Below are positions 2,980-51,463 of a stretch of DNA of 64,000 nt, one piece after another. The first letter of the stretch is position 1. Every line of letters begins with the position of its first letter. Origin of the DNA: an uncultured Actinomycetota bacterium (GTDB lineage: Bacteria > Actinomycetota > Actinomycetes > JAHEKZ01). The notes under the pieces are model-generated. The model did no database searches. It saw only the letters and a program-made list of their open reading frames with translations, and was not told the DNA's origin. A program made the position numbers and the translations under genes. The stretch is taken from contig CAVSDB010000001.1 in the NCBI GenBank assembly GCA_963726755.1, forward strand, positions 429,127 through 493,126, given 5' to 3'.

Positions 2980-5489
2980 ATGCACACTCGACCGCTGACG
3001 CGTGATGAGGCACAAGCACAGAGCTCGACTCATCACTGTCGACAGTTACGACATCACGATCGACCTCACGGGTTGCGACGACGGTCTGCCTACGTTTGGT
3101 ACCACGTCACGCATTCTGTTCTCGAGTGCCGAAGTCGGCGCCGAGACGTTCGCGGAGTTCCGTAGTACTGAGCCAGCGACGGCAACGCTTAATGGGCGCG
3201 AGGTCCCAGTTGTCGACGGTCGCATCGTGCTCGACGACCTGGCTGACACCAACGAACTCGTAGTACACGGACGTGGCGACTATTCGACGTCCGGTGAGGG
3301 ACTGCATCGCGCAGTTGACCCGGCTGATGATGCTGTCTACGTCTACAGCATGTGCTTCTTGCACGATGCCTCACGAGTCTTCGCCTGCTTTGACCAACCG
3401 GACCTCAAAGCAGTCTTCCGCCTGACGATCAGTGCTCCGTCAAGCTGGACAGTCATCTCCAACGCACCAGCCAACGGCGACGGGACGTTTGCACCGACCC
3501 CAAAGCTGCCGACGTACCTCGTGGCTTTGGCCGCGGGACCGTACGCGTCGGTGCATGGAACGTGGACGCCCCCTGGCGGTGGCCCGGACGTCCCACTCGG
3601 CGTGTACGGCCGACAGTCACTTGCTCCGCTACCTTGAGCCGGACATCTTGGAGACGACCAAGGCAGGGCTCGAGTTCTTCACGTCGCAGTTCGGTATCGC
3701 GTTCCCGTTCGCAAAGTTCGACCAACTGTTTGCACCGGAGTTCAACGCGGGTGCGATGGAGAACGCCGGTCTGGTCATACATATGGACGAGTTGCTGTTT
3801 CGAAGTGTCGTCACTGAGTCTGAGCGTGAAACGCGCGCAAACATCGTGCTGCACGAAATGGCGCACATGTGGTTCGGCGACCTAGTGACGATGCGCTGGT
3901 GGGATGACCTCTGGCTCAACGAAGCTTTCGCAACCTACTGCTCCTACCTTGCAACGGCGGAGATCACCGAGTTCACCCAGGCTTGGACCAGTTTCTGCGT
4001 CAACGAGAAGTCCCGCGGCCGCGCCGGCGATGCGCGTCCGTCCAGTCACCCGGTGTCGGGGGACGTGGTCGATACCGACGCAGCGCTGCTCAACTTCGAC
4101 GCGATCAGCTACAACAAAGGTGCGAGTCTGTTGCAGCAGTTGGCCGAGAAGGTCGGACGCGATGCCTTCTTCGCCGGTGTACGCCACTACTTCACCGAAC
4201 ATGCTTGGGGGAACACCGATCTGCAGGACTTGTTGACCGCATTGGCGCGCGCAAGTGAGGTCTCGCTCGACGGTTGGTCCGACCGATACCTCAAGACGAC
4301 CGGCTGCCCGACGATCGTGGCCGAGGTGTCGGTTGACGCTGCGACTGGATTGATCACCAACTTGGACGTGGTGCAGCGCAACGTCGTGACCGACCAACAG
4401 GTCGGCGTTGGTCTGTACCGATCCGAATCCGGCAGTCTCACTCGGGTGGCTCGTCATGACTTCGCGTTGACCGGTGAACGGACGCACATGACCACCGCTG
4501 TTGGGCTGTCGGCGCCTGACGTGGTGTTGCTCAATGACGGTGACGGGGCGTACGCGTCGATGGAGTTGGATCAGGTTTCCCTGGCGAACGTCATGATGTC
4601 AGGGGTCAGCGCTTTCGATGAATCACTGCCGCGCGCGCTCGTGTGGGGCTCGTTGTGGGACATGACGTTGAGTGGTGAGCTGGCAGCGGCTGAATTCATC
4701 GAAGAAGTGGCGCGTGCCTTGCCCGGCGAGAGTCACGTCCCGGTGATTGAGCAGTTGCTCGAGCGCGCTCACATTGCCTCCGAGCAGTTCGTGGCGCCGA
4801 GCGACACGGCGGCATTGCGAATACAACTCGGGGAGGCATGCACGGCAGCGGGTCGAGGCACAGTACCCGGATCGGGAAGGCAACTGGCGCTCATGCAGGG
4901 TGAGGCTGCCTTCGCGACCTCCCCTGAACAGTTGCAGCGAATCGGGGATCTGTTGGACGGCCCGTCAGACCGTAATGGCCTGATGATCGACGCAGACTTG
5001 CGCTGGCGTTTGCTGCATCGGCTCGTGGCCACCGGGCTTCGTGCGGTCGAGGACATCGAGGCTGAGTTCTCCCGTGACTCCACCGCGTTTGGTCGTCACC
5101 GCGCGGACCGAGCCAAGGCAGCGGTTCCGAGCGCTGACGCGAAGGAGCGGGCATGGGCGGCCGCCATCGGTAGTGCATCGGGCAGCACTAACCGAACCGT
5201 GCGCGAGGCGTGTCTCGGGTTCTGGCAATGGAATCAACGAGAACTGTGCAGTCCCTACGTCAGCCGATACTTCGACGCACTTGACGACGTCTGGCGAGAA
5301 CGGGACACCGAGATTGCACACCAGATGACGGGCGAACTGTTCCCGGCGGGTTTCGTCGACGAGACAACCAGGGATCTCGTTGACCGCTACCTCACGCGAA
5401 CCGATCTGCCTGCGGGGCAGCGCCGAATTCTCGCGGACGCGCGGTTTGATCTAGTGCGAGGTCTCGACGCTCGGAACCGCAGGCGTTGA
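2980..5489 (+). CDS. pepN: aminopeptidase N (M1 family), two apparent 1-nt frameshifts (about 3010 and about 3627)
   Basis: GAMEN motif and HEMAHMWFGDLVTMRWWDDLWLNEAFATY zinc site. The N-terminus MHTRPLTRDEAQA.. (ATG 2980) shifts into ..RARLITVDSYDITIDL.. Frame 2 stops at 3637, and frame 0 continues with ..RYLEPDILETTKAGLEFF.. Removing one base at about 3627 restores QSLA-RYLEPDIL. Confidence 0.9.
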
Positions 5490-18927: not shown

Positions 18928-20373
18928 ATGAGCGAGGTCACGAGCCAGCCGGTCGTCCCGGGTGGCATCGAGTCGAGATCCATCGACTGGGTTCCCGAGA
19001 ACGAACGGCACGGCCGCGTTTCGGCGCAGGGACCGTTCTGGTTCCTCGGCAACTTCCAGCCGTTCACGGTGGGTATCGGCATCCTCGGTCCGACGGTCTT
19101 TGGGCTGACGCTGGTCCAGACCGCCATCGCCGGCATCCTCGGGATCTTGTTCGGCACCATTTTCATGGCGTTCCATGCCTCGCAGGGGCCGACCTTTGGT
19201 CTACCTCAGATGGTGCAGTCACGCGCTCAGCTCGGCTACCGCGGCGTGATCTTGGCCCTGATCGCCACCGCGTTCACGTTCGTCATGTTCAACGTGGTCG
19301 ACACGGTCATCATCAAGCTGGGTCTCAACGGGATCTTCGGCTGGAACGACAACGTCATCGCGATCGTCATCACCATCATCGGCACCGTGCTGGCCATCTA
19401 CGGACACGACTGGTTGCACCGGGTGTTCCAGGCGCTCTTCTGGGTCTCGCTGCCGTTCTGGGTGATCCTCACTCTCGGCATCATCTTCGGTTCGGCCGGT
19501 GGTCAGGCTGCCGCACCAACGACACTAACAACCGCCGGATTCCTTGGAATGTTTACGGTTGCCGCGTCGTACAACATCACGTACGCGCCCTACGTCTCTG
19601 ACTACACGCGCTACCTGCCCCGCAACACCAAGGTCAGCGCCATCGTGTTGTCGGTCTTCATCGGTGCGGCCGGTTCGCCGATCTGGCTGATCCCGCTGGG
19701 CGCTTGGCTTGGCGAAGCTCTGGGAGTGTCTGACCCGCTGCTCGGGATCTACACCGCTGGTAACAACGTCTTCGACGGTCTCGGCGGGATTCTCACGGTG
19801 CTCTCGGTGCTGGCCCTGGTCGCCACGATGGGCCTAAACGCCTACAGCGGCATGCTCACGATCGTGACCGGTATCGACTCCTTGCGTCCGGTTAACCCCA
19901 CTCGCACCATCCGGATCGCGGTCATCGTGGTGCTTGCTGTCGTGTGGCTGCTGCTGGCGAGCTTGCTCGAGAACGCGTCAACGGCTCTGGCCAACAGCTT
20001 GCTCGTGATGTTGTACCTGCTTGCTCCGTGGACCGCGATCAACCTGATGGACTACTTCTTCGTCCGACGTGGTCACTACGCAATCACTGACCTGTTCAGC
20101 CCGAACGGGATCTACGGTGCGTGGGCATGGCGCGGCATTGTCGCGTTGCTCATCGGTATCGCAGTGGAGTTCCCCTTCATGGTCGTTGGAACCACCTATA
20201 CCGGGTTCATCGCCAGCGACTACCTCCAATACGTCGACATCTCGTGGATGGTCGGCATGGTTGTGGGTGGCGGGCTGTACTACATCTTCACGCGATCGCT
20301 CGACGTCGCGGGCGAGCAGTCGGCTATCGACGCCAGCGAGCAAGTACTGCGCGACACCGGTGTGGCGCGATGA
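18928..20373 (+). CDS. NCS1-family (purine-cytosine / hydantoin-type) permease
   Basis: 481 aa, 12 predicted TM segments. N-terminal ...[32 protein letters not shown] is typical of CodB/NCS1. The stop overlaps the next start (ATGA). Confidence 0.8.
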
Positions 20374-21758
20374 CCGCGGTCGACGCACAAAGTGATGAGG
20401 CACGGCTCGCCGAGGTTGGTGAGGCAGCGGACGGACTCGTCAAAGCGTTCGGTTCTCACGACCGCGACGCGTACTTCGAGGCGTTCGCACCCGAGGCGAC
20501 GTTCGTGTTCCATCCGTCACCGGAGCGCCTCGAGTCGCGCGCTGACTACGAGCGAGAGTGGGCGGCGTGGGAGTTCGACGGTTTCCACGTCGAGTCGTGC
20601 GAAAGTCTCGATCGACGCATCGACCTGATCACTCCCGACGTCGCGGTGATGACGCACAGCGTCCGCACCCGCCTGGCGGGTGTCGAGGAAACGCAGCGCG
20701 AACGCGAGACGATCGTGTTTAGGCGATCGCCGGACGGCGCATGGTCGGCGGTGCACGAGCATCTGTCGCCGGACCCTGGGAACGGACACATGAGCGGAGA
20801 GCCGTCGCCGATCGGACCGCCCAGCGCGGTTGAGGTTCCCCGCTTCGCCGGACCCGACACGTTCGCGCGGCTCCCGCGACTCGACCAGGTCGAGCACGCC
20901 GGCGTCGCGGTGCTTGGTATCCCGTTCGACTCCGGTGTCTCGTACCGTTCCGGCGCCCGCTTCGGCCCCCAGGGGATCCGCGCAGGTTCGAAACTGCTGC
21001 GGCCGTATCACCCGTGGCTCGACGTCAACCCGTGGGATGTGCAGCAGGTTGTCGACGCGGGGGACGTTGCTGCCAACCCGTTCGATCTGCTGGCCGCGGT
21101 CGGTCAGGTCGAGGCAGCGGCACGTTCGTTGCTCACGAAAGCCGACCGCATCGTGACGATCGGTGGCGACCACACCATCGCGCTTCCGCTACTGCGAGCA
21201 GTGGCGGCGCAACATGGTCCCGTCGCGCTGGTGCACTTCGATGCGCACCTGGACACGTGGGACACGTACTTCGGCGCGCCCTATACGCACGGCACACCGT
21301 TTCGTCGCGCAGTCGAAGAGGGTTTGCTTGATCTCGATGTCTCAGCGCACGTCGGTATTAGAGGACCGCTCTACGCAGCGAAGGACCTCGTCGAGGACAA
21401 GCAGTTGGGCTTCGCGATCGTCAGCACCGAGGACGTCGCTCGACGCGGCGTCGACGAAGCGATCGACCGAGTGCGCTCGCGAGTGGGGGACCGTCCGGTG
21501 TACGTCTCCATCGACATCGACGTCCTCGACCCGGCGCACGCACCGGGGACTGGTACGCCGGAGCCCGGCGGTCTGACGTCGCGCGAACTGCAGATGATTC
21601 TGCGCGGGTTCACCGGACTCAACCTCGTCGGCGGCGACGTCGTCGAGGTGGCGCCGGCGTACGACCACGCCGAACTCACCACCATCGCAGCGGCCAACGT
21701 TGTTTATGAGTTGCTCGGACTCATGGCACTACAGAAAACTCAGGGGAGTCAGTCATGA
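20370..21758 (+). CDS. arginase/agmatinase-family ureohydrolase (guanidino-amidinohydrolase) with an N-terminal SnoaL/NTF2-like (DUF4440-like) domain in the same frame
   Basis: Residues about 1-135 are NTF2-like (..[15 protein letters not shown]..). Then comes ...[13 protein letters not shown]...[22 protein letters not shown]...GGDHTIALP...HFDAHLDTW...[23 protein letters not shown] (manganese-site motifs). There is no stop codon between the two parts. Confidence 0.75.
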
Positions 21759-26670: not shown

Positions 26671-26745
26671 GGTGCGCCGCCAGGGACTCGAACCCCGAAC
26701 CCGCGGATTAAGAGTCCGCTGCTCTGCCAGTTGAGCTAGCGGCGC
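26671..26745 (-). tRNA. tRNA-Lys (anticodon CTT)
   Basis: Reverse complement GCGCCGCTAGCTCAACTGGCAGAGCAGCGGACTCTTAATCCGCGGGTTCGGGGTTCGAGTCCCTGGCGGCGCACC. Clean cloverleaf; anticodon loop CTCTTAA; 7-bp acceptor stem. Confidence 0.9.
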
Positions 26746-32823: not shown

Positions 32824-32900
32824 TGGGGTGAGTGACGGGACTTGAACCCGCGGCCCCCTGGACCACAACCAGGTGCTCTACCAGCTGAGCTACACCCACC
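32824..32900 (-). tRNA. tRNA-His (anticodon GTG) with encoded G-1 and CCA
   Basis: Reverse complement GGTGGGTGTAGCTCAGCTGGTAGAGCACCTGGTTGTGGTCCAGGGGGCCGCGGGTTCAAGTCCCGTCACTCACCCCA. 8-bp acceptor stem with G-1:C73; anticodon loop TTGTGGT. Confidence 0.9.
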
Positions 32901-34539: not shown

Positions 34540-34615
34540 TGGTGCCCCCGGTTGGAATCGAACCAACGGCCAACTGCTTAGAAGGCAGGCGCTCTATCCG
34601 CTGAGCTACGGGGGC
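34540..34615 (-). tRNA. tRNA-Arg (anticodon TCT)
   Basis: Reverse complement GCCCCCGTAGCTCAGCGGATAGAGCGCCTGCCTTCTAAGCAGTTGGCCGTTGGTTCGATTCCAACCGGGGGCACCA. Anticodon loop CTTCTAA; CCA encoded. Confidence 0.85.
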
Positions 34616-42491: not shown

Positions 42492-43982
42492 CTAGGGACG
42501 CACCACGCGGAACAGGCTCATGTCCTTGCTGATCGCGCCACGCACGTGTCCGTACGGTGCCGCCGCCGTCTTCCGCAAGAAGTCGACCGTCTCGGTGTTG
42601 ACGACCTCGCCAGGGAGCAAGTTCGGGATCCCCGGCGGATAGGCCGCAACTGCGTCGGCTGAAACTCGTCCGACGGCGTTGGCTGCGCTGACGATCTCGG
42701 TTTCAGCAAAGTACGCATCGCGGACCGAAGTTGCTCGCTCACCAGGAGTTGGCAACTCGATGTGTGCGGTGCTGTCGACGCCATCGGCTGGCAGGCGGTG
42801 CATTGCATCGAGCAGTCGATCAACGTCCGGAACCGCACCGGCGCCGACAACCGCGACCAGAACAGCGTCGGTCGACATTTCGAGGTGAATGTTGTGCTCG
42901 GTGAAGAGCAGGTGACGAGCCTCGTGGCCACTGATGCCGCCGGCGCGAGTGTCCATGACAACCCGCAGTGGGTCGAGGGACATGACGTCGTCGAAGGCGA
43001 GCATGCGCTCGTCGATCGAGCCGTAGCGACCTTCGGCTGCTAGGCGGCCGCGAATCTTGTCGACGCAGCCGAGGCTCGCGGTGATGGCTGTCGCACCGTT
43101 GACGGCCATCTGCTTGCGGGCTTGATCCAGCGACGCCATAAGCAGAGCGGACGAGGACGTTGACTGCATCGACCTGAACGAACGCTCGATGAGTGGCTCG
43201 AGACGGTCGGCGAATTCGCCGTGACCGAGGTGCAGCATCGCCGACTGGGTAAGGGATCCCGCAAGTTTGTGCGTCGACGAGATGACCAGGTCGGCGCCTA
43301 GGCGAAGTGCGTTTTGTGGCAGCTCGGGGTGGAAACCAAAGTGCGCGCCCCACGCTTCGTCAACGACGAGTGGCACGCCGTGCATGTGCGCGACCTTCGC
43401 GAGCCCAGCGACATCTGCGACGGCGCCGAAGTACGACGGGGTCACTACGTAGGCGGCGGCAGCGTTCGGGTTAGCGAAGAGGGCGGTGTCTAGAGCTTCT
43501 GGCGTTACACCGTGCGCGATGCCGTACTCCGCGTCAACGCTGGGGTAAACGAACGACGCGTCGAGGCCCGCGAGGGCGAGTCCGTCAATGACGGACGAGT
43601 GGACGCTGCGCTGCAGCACGATTTGTGTACCGAGTCCGCGGACTGCGAGGCAGGCAACGAGGTTGCCCTTGCTTGCGCCGTTGGTGAGGAACCAAGTGCG
43701 TCGCGCACCCCACGCTTGCGCGGCTAGGTATGCCGACTGACTCAGCGGAGTTGGTGCGTCACCGAAGTCGATGCCGTGGGTCAGCGGCGGGATGTCGAGC
43801 CGAACTGCCTGCTCGCCAAGAAACTCGATGAGCCCGGGCTGGGCATCGTGCGATGCCTGGTGACCGGGGACGCCAAGCCGAAGGATGTCGGTGTTGGCGT
43901 TCGCCTCGAGTGCGTCGCTGTACGGCGTGCAGGTTTGGTCGAGGCCGGGGATGTTGGCCGCCAAGGAGTCGTGAGGGGTCAT
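42492..43982 (-). CDS. PLP-dependent Orn/Lys/Arg decarboxylase-family enzyme
   Basis: ..VISSTHKLAGSLTQSAML.. (PLP-lysine region). About 497 aa from MTPHDSLAANIPG. Confidence 0.75.
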   Translation of the reverse strand: MTPHDSLAANIPGLDQTCTPYSDALEANANTDILRLGVPGHQASHDAQPGLIEFLGEQAVRLDIPPLTHGIDFGDAPTPLSQSAYLAAQAWGARRTWFLTNGASKGNLVACLAVRGLGTQIVLQRSVHSSVIDGLALAGLDASFVYPSVDAEYGIAHGVTPEALDTALFANPNAAAAYVVTPSYFGAVADVAGLAKVAHMHGVPLVVDEAWGAHFGFHPELPQNALRLGADLVISSTHKLAGSLTQSAMLHLGHGEFADRLEPLIERSFRSMQSTSSSALLMASLDQARKQMAVNGATAITASLGCVDKIRGRLAAEGRYGSIDERMLAFDDVMSLDPLRVVMDTRAGGISGHEARHLLFTEHNIHLEMSTDAVLVAVVGAGAVPDVDRLLDAMHRLPADGVDSTAHIELPTPGERATSVRDAYFAETEIVSAANAVGRVSADAVAAYPPGIPNLLPGEVVNTETVDFLRKTAAAPYGHVRGAISKDMSLFRVVRP

Positions 43983-44067
43983 AGGTATAAGAGTCGACGA
44001 TTTAAGAAGCAAAGACAAGGGGGTGACTATCTGCCTCCGCTCAATACTGGGTATGTAGCATAGACGC

Positions 44068-44970
44068 ATGCTCGATCTAAGACAGTTGTCGGTTCTTGAG
44101 GCGGTTGCGCGCGAAGGCTCAATGGCGGGGGCTGCTCGATCCCTGCACTACAGCCAGCCCACAGTGGCCCACCACCTCGCGGCCCTGGAGTCTCACTTGG
44201 GTGTCGCTCTGGTGACTCGGACTACTCGCGGAGCGACGCTAACTGAACTCGGCCAACTGTTCCTCGGTCACGCGAGCGCGGTACTGGATCGACTCGCTTC
44301 TGCAGAGGCTGAGGTCAAGGCGCTGGCTCAGCACGGGGTGGTAACTCTTCGCGTCGGAACGTTTCCGACCGCCGGGGCGCACGTGTTGCCTCACGCGGTC
44401 GCGGCGACGCTCGTGCGCACCGAAGTCCGTATCGAACTTCTGGAAGCCGAGACCACCGAGCTGATCGAACGACTTGATGCACGCGAATTGCACTGTGCGC
44501 TCGTCTACGACGACCCGGATGCTCCGATGCTTGTTCGCGAAGACTTAGCCATCACTGCGTTGTTCGACGATCCGTTTCTCGTGGTACTGCCTGCAAGTCA
44601 TCGCTTGGCATCCGCTGAATCGATCCGGCTTGGGGATCTTGCCGATGACGGTTGGATGATGTCGCGCGACATTGACGAGCCCGCGGACCAATCGCTGAGA
44701 GCAGCATGTGCCGTTGAGGGGTTCGTACCGCGTCCGGTATTGCGCACCGACGACTACGACGTGATGTTCGGCTTCGTTGCTGCAGGCGTCGGTGTCGCGT
44801 TGGTTCCGCAGATGGCGATCGTCGAGCGTGAAGGCGTGGTTGTTCGACCACTCGCAGGTGCCAAACTGCGACGAACGGTGATGTTCGTTATGCATCCAGA
44901 CGATTCACCCCCGGCTGCCAAAGCATTGCTAGCGGCGCTGCGGGCTAGTGCTGTAACGCTGTCGGCTTAG
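44068..44970 (+). CDS. LysR-family transcriptional regulator, divergent from the decarboxylase
   Basis: MLDLRQLSVLEAVAREGSMAGAARSLHYSQPTVAHHLAALE (HTH), followed by a LysR substrate-binding domain. Confidence 0.85.
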   Translation: MLDLRQLSVLEAVAREGSMAGAARSLHYSQPTVAHHLAALESHLGVALVTRTTRGATLTELGQLFLGHASAVLDRLASAEAEVKALAQHGVVTLRVGTFPTAGAHVLPHAVAATLVRTEVRIELLEAETTELIERLDARELHCALVYDDPDAPMLVREDLAITALFDDPFLVVLPASHRLASAESIRLGDLADDGWMMSRDIDEPADQSLRAACAVEGFVPRPVLRTDDYDVMFGFVAAGVGVALVPQMAIVEREGVVVRPLAGAKLRRTVMFVMHPDDSPPAAKALLAALRASAVTLSA

Positions 44971-45158
44971 CCAGACTTGCGTCGGAACTCGCGCTTGCCG
45001 CCGTGCTGGTGAGTGTCCGGCTTCCCGTGAGTCGACTCGCCGCCACGACCTCCGCCGACCCCGTCGGCACCCTGCTGCTTCTTACGCTCCAGCGCCTCGC
45101 GGTACTTGTCTTTGGGATCGTCCCTGCCCGGTGTGGGCTTGGTCTCGTCGGTAGCCAT
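44967..45158 (-). CDS. small conserved actinobacterial protein (DUF5302-like), Lys/Arg/Gly-rich
   Basis: MATDETKPTPGRDDPKDKYREALERKKQQG... 63 aa. Confidence 0.45.
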   Translation of the reverse strand: MATDETKPTPGRDDPKDKYREALERKKQQGADGVGGGRGGESTHGKPDTHQHGGKREFRRKSG

Positions 45159-45193
45159 AGCTACACATTACCCCCGAGGATTAGTGGGATTCA

Positions 45194-45209
45194 GGCGCCA
45201 TGTGGCGCC
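45194..45209. promoter_or_regulatory. inverted repeat GGCGCCA-TG-TGGCGCC in the 164-bp region upstream of the Pls-like synthetase gene
   Basis: 7-bp perfect arms with a 2-bp spacer, 113 bp upstream of the TTG start. A second, longer-range inverted pair AGTGGGA (45184-45190) / TCCCACT (45250-45256) flanks it. Confidence 0.3.
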
Positions 45210-45321
45210 ACCGTTCCGCCCGTCAACCGGTCCGCGGAGTCGTCCCACTCACGTGCGGTCCACGTCCGAGCGGCGATAATCGAGGTGGACGGCCCCGTCG
45301 GATCCAAGATGCGAGAACTCG

Positions 45322-48300
45322 TTGACTCTGCTCCGCGCACGTTACGCGCCCGACCCTCGTACTTTGGTCGACATCTTCCAGAGCACGGTGGATGAGTATC
45401 CGGATGATCCTGCGATCGACAACGGCGCCGATGTTCTTACCTATCTCGAGTTCTATGAGAGCGCCGAGGAACTCGCCACAGCACTCAACGGCCTCGGCGT
45501 CGGGCCTGGGGACCGTGTAGGCGTCCGAATCAAGTCCGGCACGGTCGACCTTTACATAGCAATCATGGGCGTCCTCCTGTCAGGAGGGTGCTACGTCCCA
45601 GTGGACGCCGACGATCCGGACGAACGAGCCCGCATGGTCTTCGACGAGGCTGACGTAGCGGCAATCATCGGCAACGACCTGGCCGTCACCACCCGCGGAG
45701 CAAAACGAGCTGAGGTGACTGCTGTAGTCCCCGAGCCCGACGACGACGCCTGGGTGATCTTTACCTCCGGCTCTACCGGAAGACCCAAGGGGGTCGCAGT
45801 CTCGCACCGCTCGGCGGCGGGTTTCGTCGAAGCTGAAGCACGTCTGTATCTCCAGGAACGACCGTTGGGAGTTGGCGACCGAGTGATGGCCGGTCTGTCG
45901 GTCGGTTTCGACGCATCGTGCGAAGAGATGTGGCTCGCGTGGCGATACGGCGCTTGCCTGGTTCCAGCGCCTCGTTCGCTGGTACGCAGTGGCATGGACC
46001 TCGGTCCATGGCTAGTCGCGAATGACGTGACAGTGGTCTCGACCGTCCCCACTTTGTTGATGTTGTGGCCGTCCGAGGCGCTTGCCAACATTCGCCTACT
46101 GATCCTCGGAGGCGAGGCATGTCCACCCGAGATCGGCGCGAGGTACGCGTCCCCCGACCGTGAGGTGTGGAACACCTACGGGCCAACCGAGGCAACTGTG
46201 GTTTCGTGCGCCGCCAGATTGACAGGCGAACCGCCGGTGCGAATAGGACTGCCCCTCGACGGCTGGGATCTCGCCGTCGTCGATGAAGGCGGCAGCAGCG
46301 TTAACCCCGGTGAAACCGGCGAGCTCATCATCGGCGGCATCGGGCTGGCCCGGTACTTAGACCTCGAGAAGGACGCCGAAAAGTTCGCTGAAATGCCAAC
46401 ACTTGGTTGGTCGCGCGCCTACCGCAGCGGCGATCTGGTTCGGTACGACGAGGAGGGGTTGGTTTTCGTCGGACGAGCCGACGACCAAGTCAAGCTCGGA
46501 GGTCGTCGCATCGAGTTGGGTGAAGTCGACAGCGCGCTGCTCGACCTGCCGGGAGTCACCGGCGCCGCGGCCGCGGTACGTAGAACCAAATCGGATAACC
46601 AGATCCTGGTCGGATACATCGTCGTTGATGCGGCCTTCGACGCTGCGATCGCCATGGAACAGTTGCGTGCCAGCATGCCTGCCGCGATGGTGCCACGTCT
46701 GGCCCAGGTTGAGCAGATACCGACGAAGACCTCGGGGAAAGTCGACCGCGATGCGCTGGCTTGGCCCCTAGCGCGCGTCAAGTCCGAAGCCGCCGAGACT
46801 CGCTTCGAAGGCACTGCTGGCTGGGTTCAGGACATCTGGATGGACGTCCTCGGAGCGGTAGTCACCAGCGCCGCGGACGACTTCTTCGATCTGGGCGGAG
46901 GCAGTCTGACGGCTGCCCAACTGGTGGCCAGGTTGCGTGAGCGTTTTCCGGAAGCCACAGTTGCCGATGTCTACGAGCACCCCACAATCGGTGGACTCGC
47001 GGCGACTCTGGACTTGATGGCCGGCCCGACGACGAAGACCAACCGACCGGTGCGTCCGGTGCCGCTGAAGACACAAGTCAGCCAGGTAGCCCTCACTTTC
47101 GGTTTGCGCACCGTTAGTGGGCTGAGGTGGCTTATTTGGATCGCAGCCGCGAACAACGTGAGCAGTTCGGTCCTCGGGGTCAACTGGCTTCCGACGGTCT
47201 CGTGGTGGTGGGTGCTGGCCGGGTGGTTGCTGTTGGTGTCTCCGCCTGGCCGCATTCTGCTCACCGCAACCGGTGCGCGCATATTGCTGCGTGGCATTGC
47301 TCCCGGTGGGTACCCCAGGGGCGGACTCGTGCACCTGCGCGTCTGGCTTGCCGAGCGCGTGGCAGACGAACTGGGTGCGGCGAACCTCGCTGCGGCGCCG
47401 TGGATGCGGCAGTACGCGCGTGCGCTCGGTGCAACCATCGGAGGTCACGTCGACCTTCACTCGACTCCACCCATCACCGGCATGCTCAGGCTCGATGCTG
47501 GGTGCACGATCGAGCCCGAAGTCGACTTGCGGGGTTACTGGATCGACGGCGAGGTCCTCCACGTTGGTCGAATGGAGGTTGGCGCGGGAGCTCGAGTTGG
47601 CGCTCGGAGCATGCTTCTTCCGGGGGCGTCAATCGGCGCGGGCGCGGAGATTGCGCCAGGCTCGGCCGTCTTCGGTGAGGTCCCGGCGGACGAGGCTTGG
47701 TCGGGCGCCCCTGCTCAGCCAGTCGGTGAAGCCAGGGGTCCTTGGGAACAAACGCGGCCGAACAACCAGCCGATGTGGGTGGTGGGCTACGCCGCGATGG
47801 CGGTACTCATCTCGACCTTCCCCCTCATCGCAGTTGTTGCGGGCGGGGCGTTGGCGGTGCCGGCCCTTCGCTCAGCGGCGTCCCTGCACGACGCCACCCT
47901 CACCGCACTGGTCTACCTCCCGGTTTGCGTGGTGCTGGCGATGTTGGTTCTGGCAATTCTCATCTGGCTGCTGGTGCGACTGCTCTCGATTGGCCTCGAG
48001 GGCGGGCATCACCCTGTGCAAAGTCGAGCGGCGTGGCAGGCATGGTCGATTCTGCGGGTGCTCGATGAGGCGCGAAACTGGTTGTTTCCGCTCTACTCCA
48101 GCACGCTGACGCCCTCGTGGCTACGTGCGCTTGGAGCGCGAGTTGGGTCAAACGTCGAGGCGTCCACTGTGTTGTTGATCCCCACCCTCACTTCCATCAG
48201 CGATGGCGCTTTCCTCGCTGACGACACCTTGCTCGGTGGGTACGAACTCAGCGGGGGGTGGCTGCGAATAGAGCGGGTAAAGGTCGGCAAGCACGCTTTC

Positions 48301-49185
48301 GTGGGCAATTCGGGGATGACCGCTCCTGGGCGCAAGGTCCCTAAGAGGGGTTTGGTCGCCGTACTATCGGCCGCGCCACGGCGTAAACATGCCAAGAGCG
48401 GAACGTCGTGGATCGGCAGCCCACCCACGAAACTTCGACGACAGTCAAGCTCTGTCGATGACAGCCGGACGTATAACCCGTCGACGGGGCTGCGGTTCGC
48501 GCGATCTGGGATCGAGTTGCTTCGTGTCGTCGCGGTCATCTCCTATGCAGCGATCTGCCTCGCCGTCGTTGTCACGCTCGAAGCGCTCGTGACGAGCGTG
48601 GGGTGGCTTCTGGCAGCACTGCTGTCCGGCGTGGTGCTGATTGGTGCAGGTGCCGTTGCAGCCGGAGTAACCGCGGTCGCGAAGTGGTTGCTCGTTGGGC
48701 GGATGCGTGTCTCCGACCATCCACTGTGGAGTTCGTTCGTATGGCGAAATGAGCTTGCGGACACGTTCGTCGAAGTTGTTGCTGCACCATGGTTCGCCCG
48801 CGCCACGATCGGAACGCCCGTTCTCAACCTATGGTTTCGTTCGATGGGGGCAAGGATCGGCAAAGGCGTGTGGTGTGACACGTACTGGCTCCCGGAGGCC
48901 GACCTGATCGAGCTGCGCGACGGAGTGACGATCAACCAGGGCTGTGTAATACAAACCCATCTGTTCCATGACCGCATGCTCAGCATGGACAAAGTGACGA
49001 TGCGCGACGGTTCCACGCTTGGCCCGAACAGCGTCATCCTGCCAGCGGCCGTCTTGGGTCGGCACGCTACCGTCGGGCCGGTGTCGCTGGTGATGAGAGG
49101 CGAATTCGTGCCTGACAAGACCCGTTGGATCGGCAATCCCATCGGTCCTTGGCTCCCGGACGAGATCGTGGATACGTCGCGATGA
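45322..49185 (+). CDS. Pls/PosA-family single-module non-ribosomal peptide synthetase: A domain, T domain, three tandem membrane-embedded C-terminal domains. Candidate homopoly(amino acid) (epsilon-poly-L-lysine-type) synthetase.
   Basis: 1287 aa, intact. The A-domain cores are FTSGSTGRPKGV, FDAS, NTYGPTE, GELIIGG, YRSGDL and TKTSGKVDR. The carrier motif is FFDLGGGSLTAAQL. The remainder is about 650 aa with paired TM helices separating three hexapeptide/beta-helix-like soluble domains. There is no condensation or thioesterase domain. TTG start at 45322. Confidence 0.85.
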   Translation: MTLLRARYAPDPRTLVDIFQSTVDEYPDDPAIDNGADVLTYLEFYESAEELATALNGLGVGPGDRVGVRIKSGTVDLYIAIMGVLLSGGCYVPVDADDPDERARMVFDEADVAAIIGNDLAVTTRGAKRAEVTAVVPEPDDDAWVIFTSGSTGRPKGVAVSHRSAAGFVEAEARLYLQERPLGVGDRVMAGLSVGFDASCEEMWLAWRYGACLVPAPRSLVRSGMDLGPWLVANDVTVVSTVPTLLMLWPSEALANIRLLILGGEACPPEIGARYASPDREVWNTYGPTEATVVSCAARLTGEPPVRIGLPLDGWDLAVVDEGGSSVNPGETGELIIGGIGLARYLDLEKDAEKFAEMPTLGWSRAYRSGDLVRYDEEGLVFVGRADDQVKLGGRRIELGEVDSALLDLPGVTGAAAAVRRTKSDNQILVGYIVVDAAFDAAIAMEQLRASMPAAMVPRLAQVEQIPTKTSGKVDRDALAWPLARVKSEAAETRFEGTAGWVQDIWMDVLGAVVTSAADDFFDLGGGSLTAAQLVARLRERFPEATVADVYEHPTIGGLAATLDLMAGPTTKTNRPVRPVPLKTQVSQVALTFGLRTVSGLRWLIWIAAANNVSSSVLGVNWLPTVSWWWVLAGWLLLVSPPGRILLTATGARILLRGIAPGGYPRGGLVHLRVWLAERVADELGAANLAAAPWMRQYARALGATIGGHVDLHSTPPITGMLRLDAGCTIEPEVDLRGYWIDGEVLHVGRMEVGAGARVGARSMLLPGASIGAGAEIAPGSAVFGEVPADEAWSGAPAQPVGEARGPWEQTRPNNQPMWVVGYAAMAVLISTFPLIAVVAGGALAVPALRSAASLHDATLTALVYLPVCVVLAMLVLAILIWLLVRLLSIGLEGGHHPVQSRAAWQAWSILRVLDEARNWLFPLYSSTLTPSWLRALGARVGSNVEASTVLLIPTLTSISDGAFLADDTLLGGYELSGGWLRIERVKVGKHAFVGNSGMTAPGRKVPKRGLVAVLSAAPRRKHAKSGTSWIGSPPTKLRRQSSSVDDSRTYNPSTGLRFARSGIELLRVVAVISYAAICLAVVVTLEALVTSVGWLLAALLSGVVLIGAGAVAAGVTAVAKWLLVGRMRVSDHPLWSSFVWRNELADTFVEVVAAPWFARATIGTPVLNLWFRSMGARIGKGVWCDTYWLPEADLIELRDGVTINQGCVIQTHLFHDRMLSMDKVTMRDGSTLGPNSVILPAAVLGRHATVGPVSLVMRGEFVPDKTRWIGNPIGPWLPDEIVDTSR

Positions 49186-50495
49186 ACACCGCCCCGTCGG
49201 AGGTTGTTGACGACTACTTCCCGGAGAACGGTGACCTGTCGTACGACGTGCGCAGTTATGACTTGACCATCGACTACAAGCTTGAGTCGAACCAGTTAGA
49301 CGGGCGAGCAGTTCTCGAAGCCGTTGCACGCACTGACATCAACGAACTGTCTCTCGATCTGCGTGGGCTCAGGGTATGGAAGGTCAATCTCGACACAGTT
49401 CCGGTTGCGAGATTCTTGACCAGGCACGGCAAACTCATCATCCGCACGAAGGAGGTGATCGAGCAGGGGGAAGTGTTCCGGGTCTGGGTTCGGTATAGCG
49501 GCCGACCGAAGCCGATTCCCGATGGCGGCGACGAGATGGGTTGGGACGAACTCACCGACGGGGTCATCGTGGCTGGCCAGACGAACGGCGCACCTTCCTG
49601 GTTTCCATGCAACGACCGCCCGGCTAACAAGGCGAGCTATCGCATCGCCGTCACCACCGCTTCTGCGTACCACGTCGTGGCGAATGGAACTCTCGTCAGT
49701 CGTCATCGAGGGGCGAGCGCGACCACGTGGGTTTATGAGCAACGCGAACCCATGGCCACGTATCTCGCCACGGTCCAGATCGGACGCTATGTCTCACGGC
49801 CGACAGCCAGCTCGCCGGTTCCGACGACCGCTGTCCTACCCGAGCGACTCCTCCGCTACTACGACAGCGCCTTCGGCCGCCAACCAGAGATGTTGGACTT
49901 CTTCGTCCGACGGTTCGGGCCGTATCCCTTTCCGGCGTACACGGTGGTCATCACCGAGGACGAACTCGAGATTCCTCTCGAAGCTCAAGGTCTCTCGGTG
50001 TTTGGATCCAACTTTCTCTCCGACGACTGGGACGTCGTGAGGTTGGTCGCTCACGAACTCGCACATCAATGGTTCGGCAACAGCCTCACGCTCACGACCT
50101 GGCGTGACATCTGGCTGCACGAAGGGTTCGCCTGCTACTGCGAGTGGTTGTGGTCGGAGGAGTCCGGAAACCGTTCCGCGGATGAGTGTGCGGTCGAGCA
50201 TTGGAATCGGCTGGCCGATGGACGGCAAGACGTCGAGCTCGCGGATCCGGGGCCGGACGCCATGTTCGAGGACTGGGTATACAAGCGAGGAGCACTATTG
50301 CTCCACTCGTTACGACTGACGATTGGTGACGACACGTTCTTCGAACTGCTTCGAGAATGGGTGGCGCGCAACTCTCATGGGTCGGTCACGACCGAGATGT
50401 TCATCAACCTCGCCGAGCAAGTTTCCGAGCGGGACCTCAGGAGCTTCTTTGCGCGTTGGCTGAACCAACTGGAGTTACCAGATCTGCCCGTCTAG
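49182..50495 (+). CDS. short M1-family zinc metallopeptidase (no C-terminal ERAP domain), translationally coupled to the synthetase
   Basis: HELAHQWFGNSLTLTTWRDIWLHEGFACY (HExxH plus E zinc site). About 438 aa from MNTAPSEV. The ATG overlaps the synthetase stop TGA (ATGA at 49182-49185). Confidence 0.8.
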   Translation: MNTAPSEVVDDYFPENGDLSYDVRSYDLTIDYKLESNQLDGRAVLEAVARTDINELSLDLRGLRVWKVNLDTVPVARFLTRHGKLIIRTKEVIEQGEVFRVWVRYSGRPKPIPDGGDEMGWDELTDGVIVAGQTNGAPSWFPCNDRPANKASYRIAVTTASAYHVVANGTLVSRHRGASATTWVYEQREPMATYLATVQIGRYVSRPTASSPVPTTAVLPERLLRYYDSAFGRQPEMLDFFVRRFGPYPFPAYTVVITEDELEIPLEAQGLSVFGSNFLSDDWDVVRLVAHELAHQWFGNSLTLTTWRDIWLHEGFACYCEWLWSEESGNRSADECAVEHWNRLADGRQDVELADPGPDAMFEDWVYKRGALLLHSLRLTIGDDTFFELLREWVARNSHGSVTTEMFINLAEQVSERDLRSFFARWLNQLELPDLPV

Positions 50496-51120
50496 CGACG
50501 AGCTCAGGCGGGTTCAGAGAGAGCACGGTCACGGCTGCTACATGCCCGCTCGTGGTTTCGAAGTCCATCATCCAGACCGACGTCTGAGGTGGGTCGGCAG
50601 CTGCCCACTCGACCAGGCCGGGCGGTTCGCCCGGGTCGGTGAGGAGTATCAGCCGAGGGTCGACTGTGAGACCCCGACCCGTGGCTTTGAGCAGGGATTC
50701 TTTGCGGACCCAAGTGATGGTCTCGGTAGCTCCAAACCGCAAACCCTCGTTTTCGTGCGCAACGACGGCATCGAAACCGGGAAACGAAGCCGCGTCGGAT
50801 CGTTCGACGTCCACGCCAACTTGGCCGGCTTCGGTGAGCGCAACCACCGTGAGGTCCTCGGCGTAGCTAATGCTCACATCAGGTAGCGGGAGCCCCGGGG
50901 TCGCAGCAAGTACCGGTCGACCATGCGTCGTGCTTCCGCACAATCCGCAGTGATTGGTCACGTGCGCGCCCCGACCAGGCACTCCGAGGCGTCGCAGTCC
51001 CTCACCGCAGATCATGCGACGAGCCGCCTCACGGTCGACCCCGGCACACCAAAGGACAACTACGAGTGTCGACTCCGATGTTCGGTCGAGATGGCGATTG
51101 CGCAACACGACGTCAGCCAT
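50437..51120 (-). CDS. Sfp-type 4'-phosphopantetheinyl transferase
   Basis: ..VSISYAEDLTVVAL.. and ..WVRKESLLKATGRGL.. match the PPTase motifs (SISH-like and W..KEA..K). 227 aa. Confidence 0.7.
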   Translation of the reverse strand: MADVVLRNRHLDRTSESTLVVVLWCAGVDREAARRMICGEGLRRLGVPGRGAHVTNHCGLCGSTTHGRPVLAATPGLPLPDVSISYAEDLTVVALTEAGQVGVDVERSDAASFPGFDAVVAHENEGLRFGATETITWVRKESLLKATGRGLTVDPRLILLTDPGEPPGLVEWAAADPPQTSVWMMDFETTSGHVAAVTVLSLNPPELVARRADLVTPVGSANAQRSS

Positions 51121-51463
51121 TCGTGGCGACAGTCACGACACCGTTCTCGACGTAGAGGTTCACACGGTCGGTTCGGTAGTCCATGGTCAGCGCGTAGCAG
51201 TCACCGTCCTTACCAGCCAGGCGTGTCGTGAGGTCCTGTTGCTTGGCGAGGTTCTTGGCGTCCGTTAGGGACAGGCCGATGAACTGTTGGGTGTCTACGC
51301 CCGGGGTCGCAACGTCCGACGATGGGCTGGTTAGGCAGGGACTGTCGGCCGCCGTGTCCGATTCTGACGGTGATGTCTGAGGTGTTGTGTCACCGGTGGA
51401 ATCGCTGTTCCCGCATCCGGTCATCAGGACTCCCACCGCCAAGACGATCGCGAGTTTGCGCAT
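51113..51463 (-). CDS. lipoprotein of the I78 peptidase-inhibitor family
   Basis: Signal peptide plus lipobox MRKLAIVLAVGVLMTGC. C-terminal ..FIGLSLTDAKNLAKQ...DGDCYALTMDYRTDRVNLYVENGVVT matches the Inhibitor_I78 (TMDYRxDRLN) signature. Confidence 0.6.
   Translation of the reverse strand: MRKLAIVLAVGVLMTGCGNSDSTGDTTPQTSPSESDTAADSPCLTSPSSDVATPGVDTQQFIGLSLTDAKNLAKQQDLTTRLAGKDGDCYALTMDYRTDRVNLYVENGVVTVATNG

Follow-up and report, generated by a model that had tools for sequence, protein, structure and literature searches.

An adenylation domain with the specificity code found in epsilon-poly-L-lysine synthetases, encoded in a predicted pls-peptidase operon of an uncultured actinobacterium

Introduction

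The synthetases (Pls) that make epsilon-poly-L-lysine, or epsilon-PL, contain an adenylation (A) domain, whose ten-residue specificity code has been published for several organisms. For Pls from Streptomyces albulus, the code D A E S I G T V V K is listed together with Lys as an experimentally verified substrate (PMC10522769 Supp. Table 2), and published NRPSpredictor2 output gives DAESIGTVVK for all experimentally confirmed epsilon-PL synthetases, i.e., those of S. albulus, S. roseoverticillatus, S. celluloflavus, Kitasatospora aureofaciens, Corynebacterium variabile, Epichloe festucae, and Claviceps purpurea (PMC8117764 Data Set S3). Comparable Pls predictions for related actinobacteria are already in print (including PMC10522769 Supp. 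Table 2). Here, we describe a pls-type gene in a 64,000-nucleotide (nt) stretch of contig CAVSDB010000001.1 from an uncultured actinobacterium; this whole stretch is called the window. As judged from its sequence, the locus very probably encodes the A domain of a Pls-type synthetase.

Published structures and mutagenesis of PosA, a synthetase that uses ornithine (Orn), and work on SulM support two determinants of substrate choice. A Glu at code position 3 holds the side-chain amine in place, and activity was lost in PosA E221A. Code position 2 follows the length of the substrate: Lys enzymes have Ala there, Orn enzymes have Met, and enzymes for 2,3-diaminopropionate (Dap) or 2,4-diaminobutyrate (Dab) have Phe. 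The PosA M218A mutant acquired Lys activity. PosA itself is modestly active with L-lysine, and therefore the pockets of these synthetases are not absolutely specific.

The genetic surroundings of pls have been described as well. PldII of S. albulus is an epsilon-PL-degrading metallopeptidase that is translationally coupled to pls, and repression of pldII alters the chain-length distribution of the polymer. Besides PldII, an exo-type enzyme that degrades epsilon-PL, Pld, has been described. A pls-peptidase operon has been described for C. variabile, and epsilon-PL was made when the C. variabile Pls was expressed in Streptomyces coelicolor. In one study, a downstream peptidase was reported with pls, but not with the three Dab and Dap polymer synthetases that were also compared.

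Results

The pocket of the A domain is identical to the published lysine pocket. The specificity code was extracted from a MAFFT alignment of the pls-type protein, GrsA, the A domain of S. albulus Pls (7WEW), and the 120 closest database proteins. The GrsA fragment used as the reference is 100% identical to residues 184 to 526 of 1amu_A (1AMU, GrsA-PheA), a chain that is numbered as in the Stachelhaus scheme (D235 lies in FDAS). The residues at positions 235/236/239/278/299/301/322/330/331/517 were D197, A198, E201, S240, I261, G263, T285, V293, V294, and K473, which gives the code DAESIGTVVK. The identical pipeline yielded DAWTIAAICK for GrsA and DAESIGTVVK for 7WEW. The ten codons are found on the forward strand between 45910 and 46740 and start at 45910 (D197), 45913 (A198), 45922 (E201), 46039 (S240), 46102 (I261), 46108 (G263), 46174 (T285), 46198 (V293), 46201 (V294), and 46738 (K473). 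In a preliminary description of the window, D-A-E-S-I-G-T-V-V-K had been read by hand from the interval 45322 to 46800. The automated alignment placed the same ten residues, and no others, at the code positions; since the two strings are exactly equal, the hand alignment was correct, and the interval indeed contains all of the code codons. The peptides FDASCEEMWLAWRYGACLVPA, VTVVSTVPTL, LLILGGEA, WNTYGPTEATVVSC, and TKTSGKVDR are all present in the translation of the open reading frame (ORF) at 45322..49185.

The preliminary description had also proposed a cationic substrate, with lysine as the most likely one, and this is supported by a 10/10 match to the Lys-verified code of S. albulus Pls. 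The lysine module of bacitracin synthesis, which had been named as the nearest reference, did not keep that place. Pls, with ten of ten residues, is nearer than BacB, and the BacB string given there (DAESIGSVCK), which would share 8/10 residues, is superseded by the exact Pls match. The comparison with poly-ornithine and poly-Dap enzymes that had been suggested alongside Pls gave 6/10 identical residues for both PosA (Orn; DMEHNGTVSK) and the PDAP synthetase (Dap; DFEYVGTVTK). Lower still were the poly-beta-lysine synthetase (beta-Lys; DGESVSVVNK), with 5/10, and the PLDAB (L-Dab; DFECLSAVTK) and PDDAB (D-Dab; DFECLSCVSK) synthetases, with 4/10 each.

The similarity to Pls is not restricted to the code. 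The best match of the A domain to a solved structure was 7WEW (E = 2.6e-182, 610 bits, 62% identity), and the alignment was ungapped around all pocket residues, whereas the A-domain structures of PosA (8G95 to 8G98) were matched with only about 207 bits. Over 31 compared positions of the 8-angstrom signature, there were three differences from S. albulus Pls (300 L/V, 328 A/T, and 332 S/A) and a single one from fungal Pls (position 332). Signature positions 210, 213, and 214 were left out because their placement by MAFFT failed to reproduce the published NRPSpredictor2 string of Pls; read by eye, they are F-A-E in both proteins (FVDAE and FVEAE).

Published predictor output for this code is mixed. 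The nearest-Stachelhaus layer of NRPSpredictor2 is the only one that returns "lys" for DAESIGTVVK, and its support vector machine (SVM) layers label the pockets of proven Pls "hydrophobic-aliphatic" or "tyr=bht" (PMC8117764 Data Set S3). Since the SVM layers mislabel even proven Pls, a nonbasic call by a predictor, which the preliminary description had put forward as a refutation of lysine, would misfire. For substrate prediction in the Pls family, exact-code comparison with Pls is reliable, but the SVM layers are not.

The code is conserved in related actinobacteria. We compared the locus with 80 related genome loci (L001 to L080; 56 to 72% identity), and DAESIGTVVK was present in every one of them. 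It was also found in 117 of the 120 closest database proteins, and the exceptions were conservative (I299V in one protein and V331I in two). The 80 loci come from Nocardioides, Rhodococcus, Nocardia, Mycobacterium/Mycolicibacterium, Kribbella, Kocuria, Tsukamurella, and many uncultured Actinomycetota; the closest named genomes belong to the Nocardioidaceae and, together with uncultured Actinomycetota, have 62 to 72% identity. In 202 family members, whose A domains have pairwise identities to the pls-type protein from 62% upward (median, 73%), all ten code columns were at least 97% conserved, compared to 207 of 462 A-domain columns (45%; hypergeometric P = 2.9e-4). The code match exceeds chance. 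The locus thereby adds one data point to the published picture of a DAESIGTVVK code that is invariant across actinobacterial Pls orthologues.

Domain layout of the synthetase. The pls-type gene (45322..49185, forward strand) encodes 1,287 amino acids (aa) in codons without interruption, comprising an A domain, a thiolation (T) domain, and a membrane-embedded polymerization domain. Its TTG start is the first in-frame start past a stop codon, and homologues align from residues 1 to 3. Pfam models matched AMP-binding (aa 19 to 344), AMP-binding_C (aa 401 to 473), PP-binding (aa 501 to 563), and hexapeptide repeats (Hexapep), but no canonical condensation or thioesterase domain was detected in the protein in the Pfam scan. 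The amino acid adenylation model TIGR01733 scored 324.9 bits (cutoff, 317.4), and the NCBIfam model TIGR02353 ("Pls/PosA family non-ribosomal peptide synthetase") scored 701 bits (cutoff, 423) over aa 588 to 1274, covering model positions 3 to 695 of 695. Because of these Pfam and NCBIfam matches, the interval 45322 to 46800 is assigned to the adenylation domain of a three-domain polymerase that resembles nonribosomal peptide synthetases (NRPSs). By Pfam coordinates, the A domain spans 45376..46761 (aa 19 to 480), and the core motifs A1 to A10 were all located in it. It is followed on the same strand by the T domain (46822..47010; PF00550, aa 501 to 563), in which the carrier serine is intact; the phosphopantetheine site is Ser528 in FFDLGGGS (nt 46903 to 46905).

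The C-terminal polymerization domain (47083..49143, forward strand; aa 588 to 1274) is built of three units in tandem, and every unit has a pair of hydrophobic helices plus a segment of hexapeptide repeats. The units are recognizably related to each other in BLASTP (unit 1 versus unit 2, E = 5e-10; unit 2 versus unit 3, E = 5.5e-8; unit 1 versus unit 3, E = 0.01). The helix pairs were read from Kyte-Doolittle hydrophobicity, and strong hydrophobic stretches were seen at aa 818 to 851, 855 to 895, 1062 to 1102, and 1086 to 1125. Units and helix pairs fit the published description of the polymerization domain, with six helices and three domains.

A metallopeptidase gene is coupled to pls. The gene directly downstream (49182..50495, forward strand; 437 aa, PF01433 and PF17900) encodes an M1-family zinc metallopeptidase, and its ATG overlaps the TGA stop codon of pls as ATGA (cgcgATGAac, 49182 to 49185), an arrangement shared with pldII of S. 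albulus. The zinc site HEXXH-X18-E is intact (aa 291 to 314). In 78 of the 80 related loci, a gene for a homologous peptidase follows downstream of pls in the same orientation; the remaining two loci stop at a contig edge. According to the coordinates, 74 of these 78 genes start no more than about 200 nt from the pls end, and the other four are 0.6 to 9 kb farther away. We judged the likeness to PldII by peptidase family, gene position, and coupling.

A second, larger M1 gene of the aminopeptidase N type (3432 to 5489, forward strand; PF01433 and ERAP1_C) lies 40 kb from pls and has the canonical exopeptidase motif GAMEN. The PldII-like peptidase has IPLEA in its place, and IP[LIV]E[AS] was found in 59 of 76 downstream peptidases of the related loci. 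The replacement of GAMEN by an IPLEA-type motif might be tied to the endo-type action reported for PldII.

Other genes around the operon. Convergent with the peptidase gene is a 4'-phosphopantetheinyl transferase (PPTase)-like gene (50437..51120, reverse strand; PF01648, E = 1.1e-6), and the 3' ends of the two overlap by 59 nt (50437 to 50495). Its product probably activates the T domain of the pls-type protein. In 8 of the 80 related loci, for the most part those closest to the window, a PPTase homologue has the same convergent place.

Upstream of pls are a LysR-family regulator gene (44068..44970, forward strand; PF00126 and PF03466) and a gene for an Orn/Lys/Arg-decarboxylase fold (42492 to 44069, reverse strand). 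The two are divergent, have overlapping start codons, and lie immediately upstream of pls. A LysR homologue was found in just two of the 80 related loci, upstream and on the opposite strand, and no homologue of the decarboxylase-fold gene was detected in them. The two genes were considered as parts of the system and dropped as essentially unconserved. Since they are nearly absent from the related loci, a link to lysine metabolism is rated as possible and no higher, and the connection of the LysR gene to pls is uncertain. Between the LysR gene and pls, an ORF on the reverse strand (44969 to 45158) encodes a basic, Gly-rich protein of 63 aa (MATDETKPTPGRDDPKDKYREALERKKQQG...), for which a tblastn search of the 80 related loci (E <= 1e-10) gave no match. 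A simple scan of 44900 to 51300 revealed no sigma-70-like promoter sites and fewer terminator-like sites than in shuffled controls.

Elsewhere in the window, an ORF at 20121 to 21758 (forward strand) encodes an arginase-family domain (aa 261 to 532) joined to an N-terminal SnoaL-like/DUF4440 domain, an unusual fusion. The Rfam scan of the window found tRNA-Lys (CTT; 26671 to 26745), tRNA-His (GTG; 32824 to 32899), and tRNA-Arg (TCT; 34540 to 34615), all on the reverse strand; beyond tRNAs, no family reached its gathering score.

Discussion

The analyses above show the identity of the pocket, the domain architecture, the intactness of the motifs, and the genetic context. Because the pocket exactly equals the published lysine pocket, the gene is best regarded as an ordinary, uncharacterized Pls orthologue. 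From the characterized homologues we infer the roles of the residues, the activation of lysine, its linkage through the epsilon-amine, and the polymer as product. Code positions 3 and 2 are E201 and A198, whose roles are assigned by analogy with PosA and SulM. In the reaction that we propose, the DAESIGTVVK pocket would bind L-lysine, with the alpha-amino group and the carboxylate held by D197 and K473; E201 would form a salt bridge to the epsilon-amine, and the small A198 would give space for the six-carbon chain. The A domain would then make lysyl-AMP and pass the lysyl residue as a thioester to Ser528 of the adjoining carrier domain, which is presumably primed by the neighboring PPTase. The three-unit membrane domain would join the thioester to free lysine or to the growing chain at the epsilon-amine, and repeated cycles would release epsilon-PL. 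The coupled M1 peptidase could trim or degrade the polymer, which would serve self-protection or the control of chain length.

Four observations speak against this assignment. The SVM layers of NRPSpredictor2 misclassify the DAESIGTVVK pocket in their published output. The first helix pair of the C-terminal domain (around aa 589 to 650), which is rich in Trp, shows only weak Kyte-Doolittle hydrophobicity, and the polymerization domain as such is assigned only by a family model. Finally, C. variabile does not produce detectable epsilon-PL natively despite a functional gene. Because of this native nonproducer, the presence of the gene is not proof of production.

The last point bears on the product. 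Lysine may well be activated here and still not end up in the classical polymer of 25 to 35 residues; short oligomers, a modified or cell-associated polymer, or transfer to another acceptor could be formed instead. Chain length is not revealed by sequence, and it can be shifted, as repression of pldII did in S. albulus. Moreover, the family is near-universal in actinobacteria other than Streptomyces (such as Nocardioides, Rhodococcus, Nocardia, and Mycobacterium), and in the papers that we consulted we found no report of epsilon-PL production for those four genera. C. variabile did not make it natively. But all tested members with DAESIGTVVK, bacterial as well as fungal, made epsilon-PL, and the pls-type protein's C-terminal domain matches TIGR02353 over its full length. 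A nonclassical product is thus unlikely.

With the same breadth of the family in mind, one could picture polylysine, both in this uncultured lineage and in those non-Streptomyces actinobacteria that have the invariant pocket and a coupled peptidase, in a housekeeping, lysine-linked role, as a cell-surface polycation or a lysine store, and not mainly as a secreted antibiotic. At this locus, the adjacent genes for the LysR regulator and the Orn/Lys/Arg-decarboxylase fold might be tied in with such a polymer. This could be argued only from family breadth and from the local neighborhood, the latter being essentially unconserved in the 80 related loci, and we consider the idea very unlikely.

It is most unlikely that the substrate is another cationic compound (L-ornithine, Dab, Dap, beta-lysine, or arginine) and the product another cationic homopolymer. 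Such a reading could draw on D235, E239, V330, K517, and the overall architecture, which are common to all these synthetases, and on the modest activity of PosA with L-lysine. An identity as PosA was rejected, however, on the Ala at 236 in place of Met, a code match of 6/10, and 207 bits to 8G95 versus 610 bits to 7WEW. Likewise, synthetases for poly-Dap, poly-Dab, and poly-beta-lysine were rejected, since position 236 carries the Ala of the Lys enzymes and not Phe or Gly, and since their codes match at only 4 to 6 of ten residues. The downstream peptidase, reported for pls and not for the three Dab and Dap synthetases, also argues against it. That the gene is a decayed, nonfunctional remnant whose pocket match reflects ancestry is hardly credible: the promoter scan found no sigma-70-like site upstream, but 1,287 codons are unbroken, A1 to A10, the carrier serine, and the zinc site of the coupled peptidase are intact, and all ten pocket columns are strongly conserved across the 202 homologues.

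A Pls-type synthetase for L-lysine is thus the reading that we favor. Its value lies mainly in annotation, with the substrate prediction set to L-lysine. In an uncultured actinobacterium, the locus would represent a compact operon for polylysine, made up of the genes for the synthetase and a degrading peptidase and bordered by a PPTase gene.

Among the known systems, Pls of S. albulus NBRC 14147 (BAG68864.1; 7WEW) is closest. It shares the identical code, at 62% identity of the A domains; the succession of A domain, T domain, and triple membrane-embedded domain (1,319 aa versus 1,287 aa here); and a translationally coupled M1 peptidase downstream. The locus described here differs in three second-shell positions, 300 (L/V), 328 (A/T), and 332 (S/A), in its host, which is an uncultured, non-Streptomyces actinobacterium with a GC content of about 62%, and in the PPTase gene that adjoins the operon. 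Pls of C. variabile DSM 44702 (WP_014008652.1/WP_148263309.1) is likewise from a non-Streptomyces actinobacterium and has the same code and a pls-peptidase operon, but positions 300 (F), 332 (A), and 334 (G) of its 8-angstrom signature are different. PosA, the delta-poly-L-ornithine synthetase of Acinetobacter baumannii (ATY43264.1; 8G95 to 8G98), belongs to the same three-domain TIGR02353 family and has the same binding mode, in which the side-chain amine is held by the Glu at code position 3. It differs in code position 2, where Met replaces Ala and contacts the C-delta of ornithine, and no cotranscribed neighbor gene is given for it in the literature. The lysine module of BacB belongs to a multimodular NRPS that has canonical condensation domains, whereas the protein described here is predicted to be an iterative membrane polymerase.

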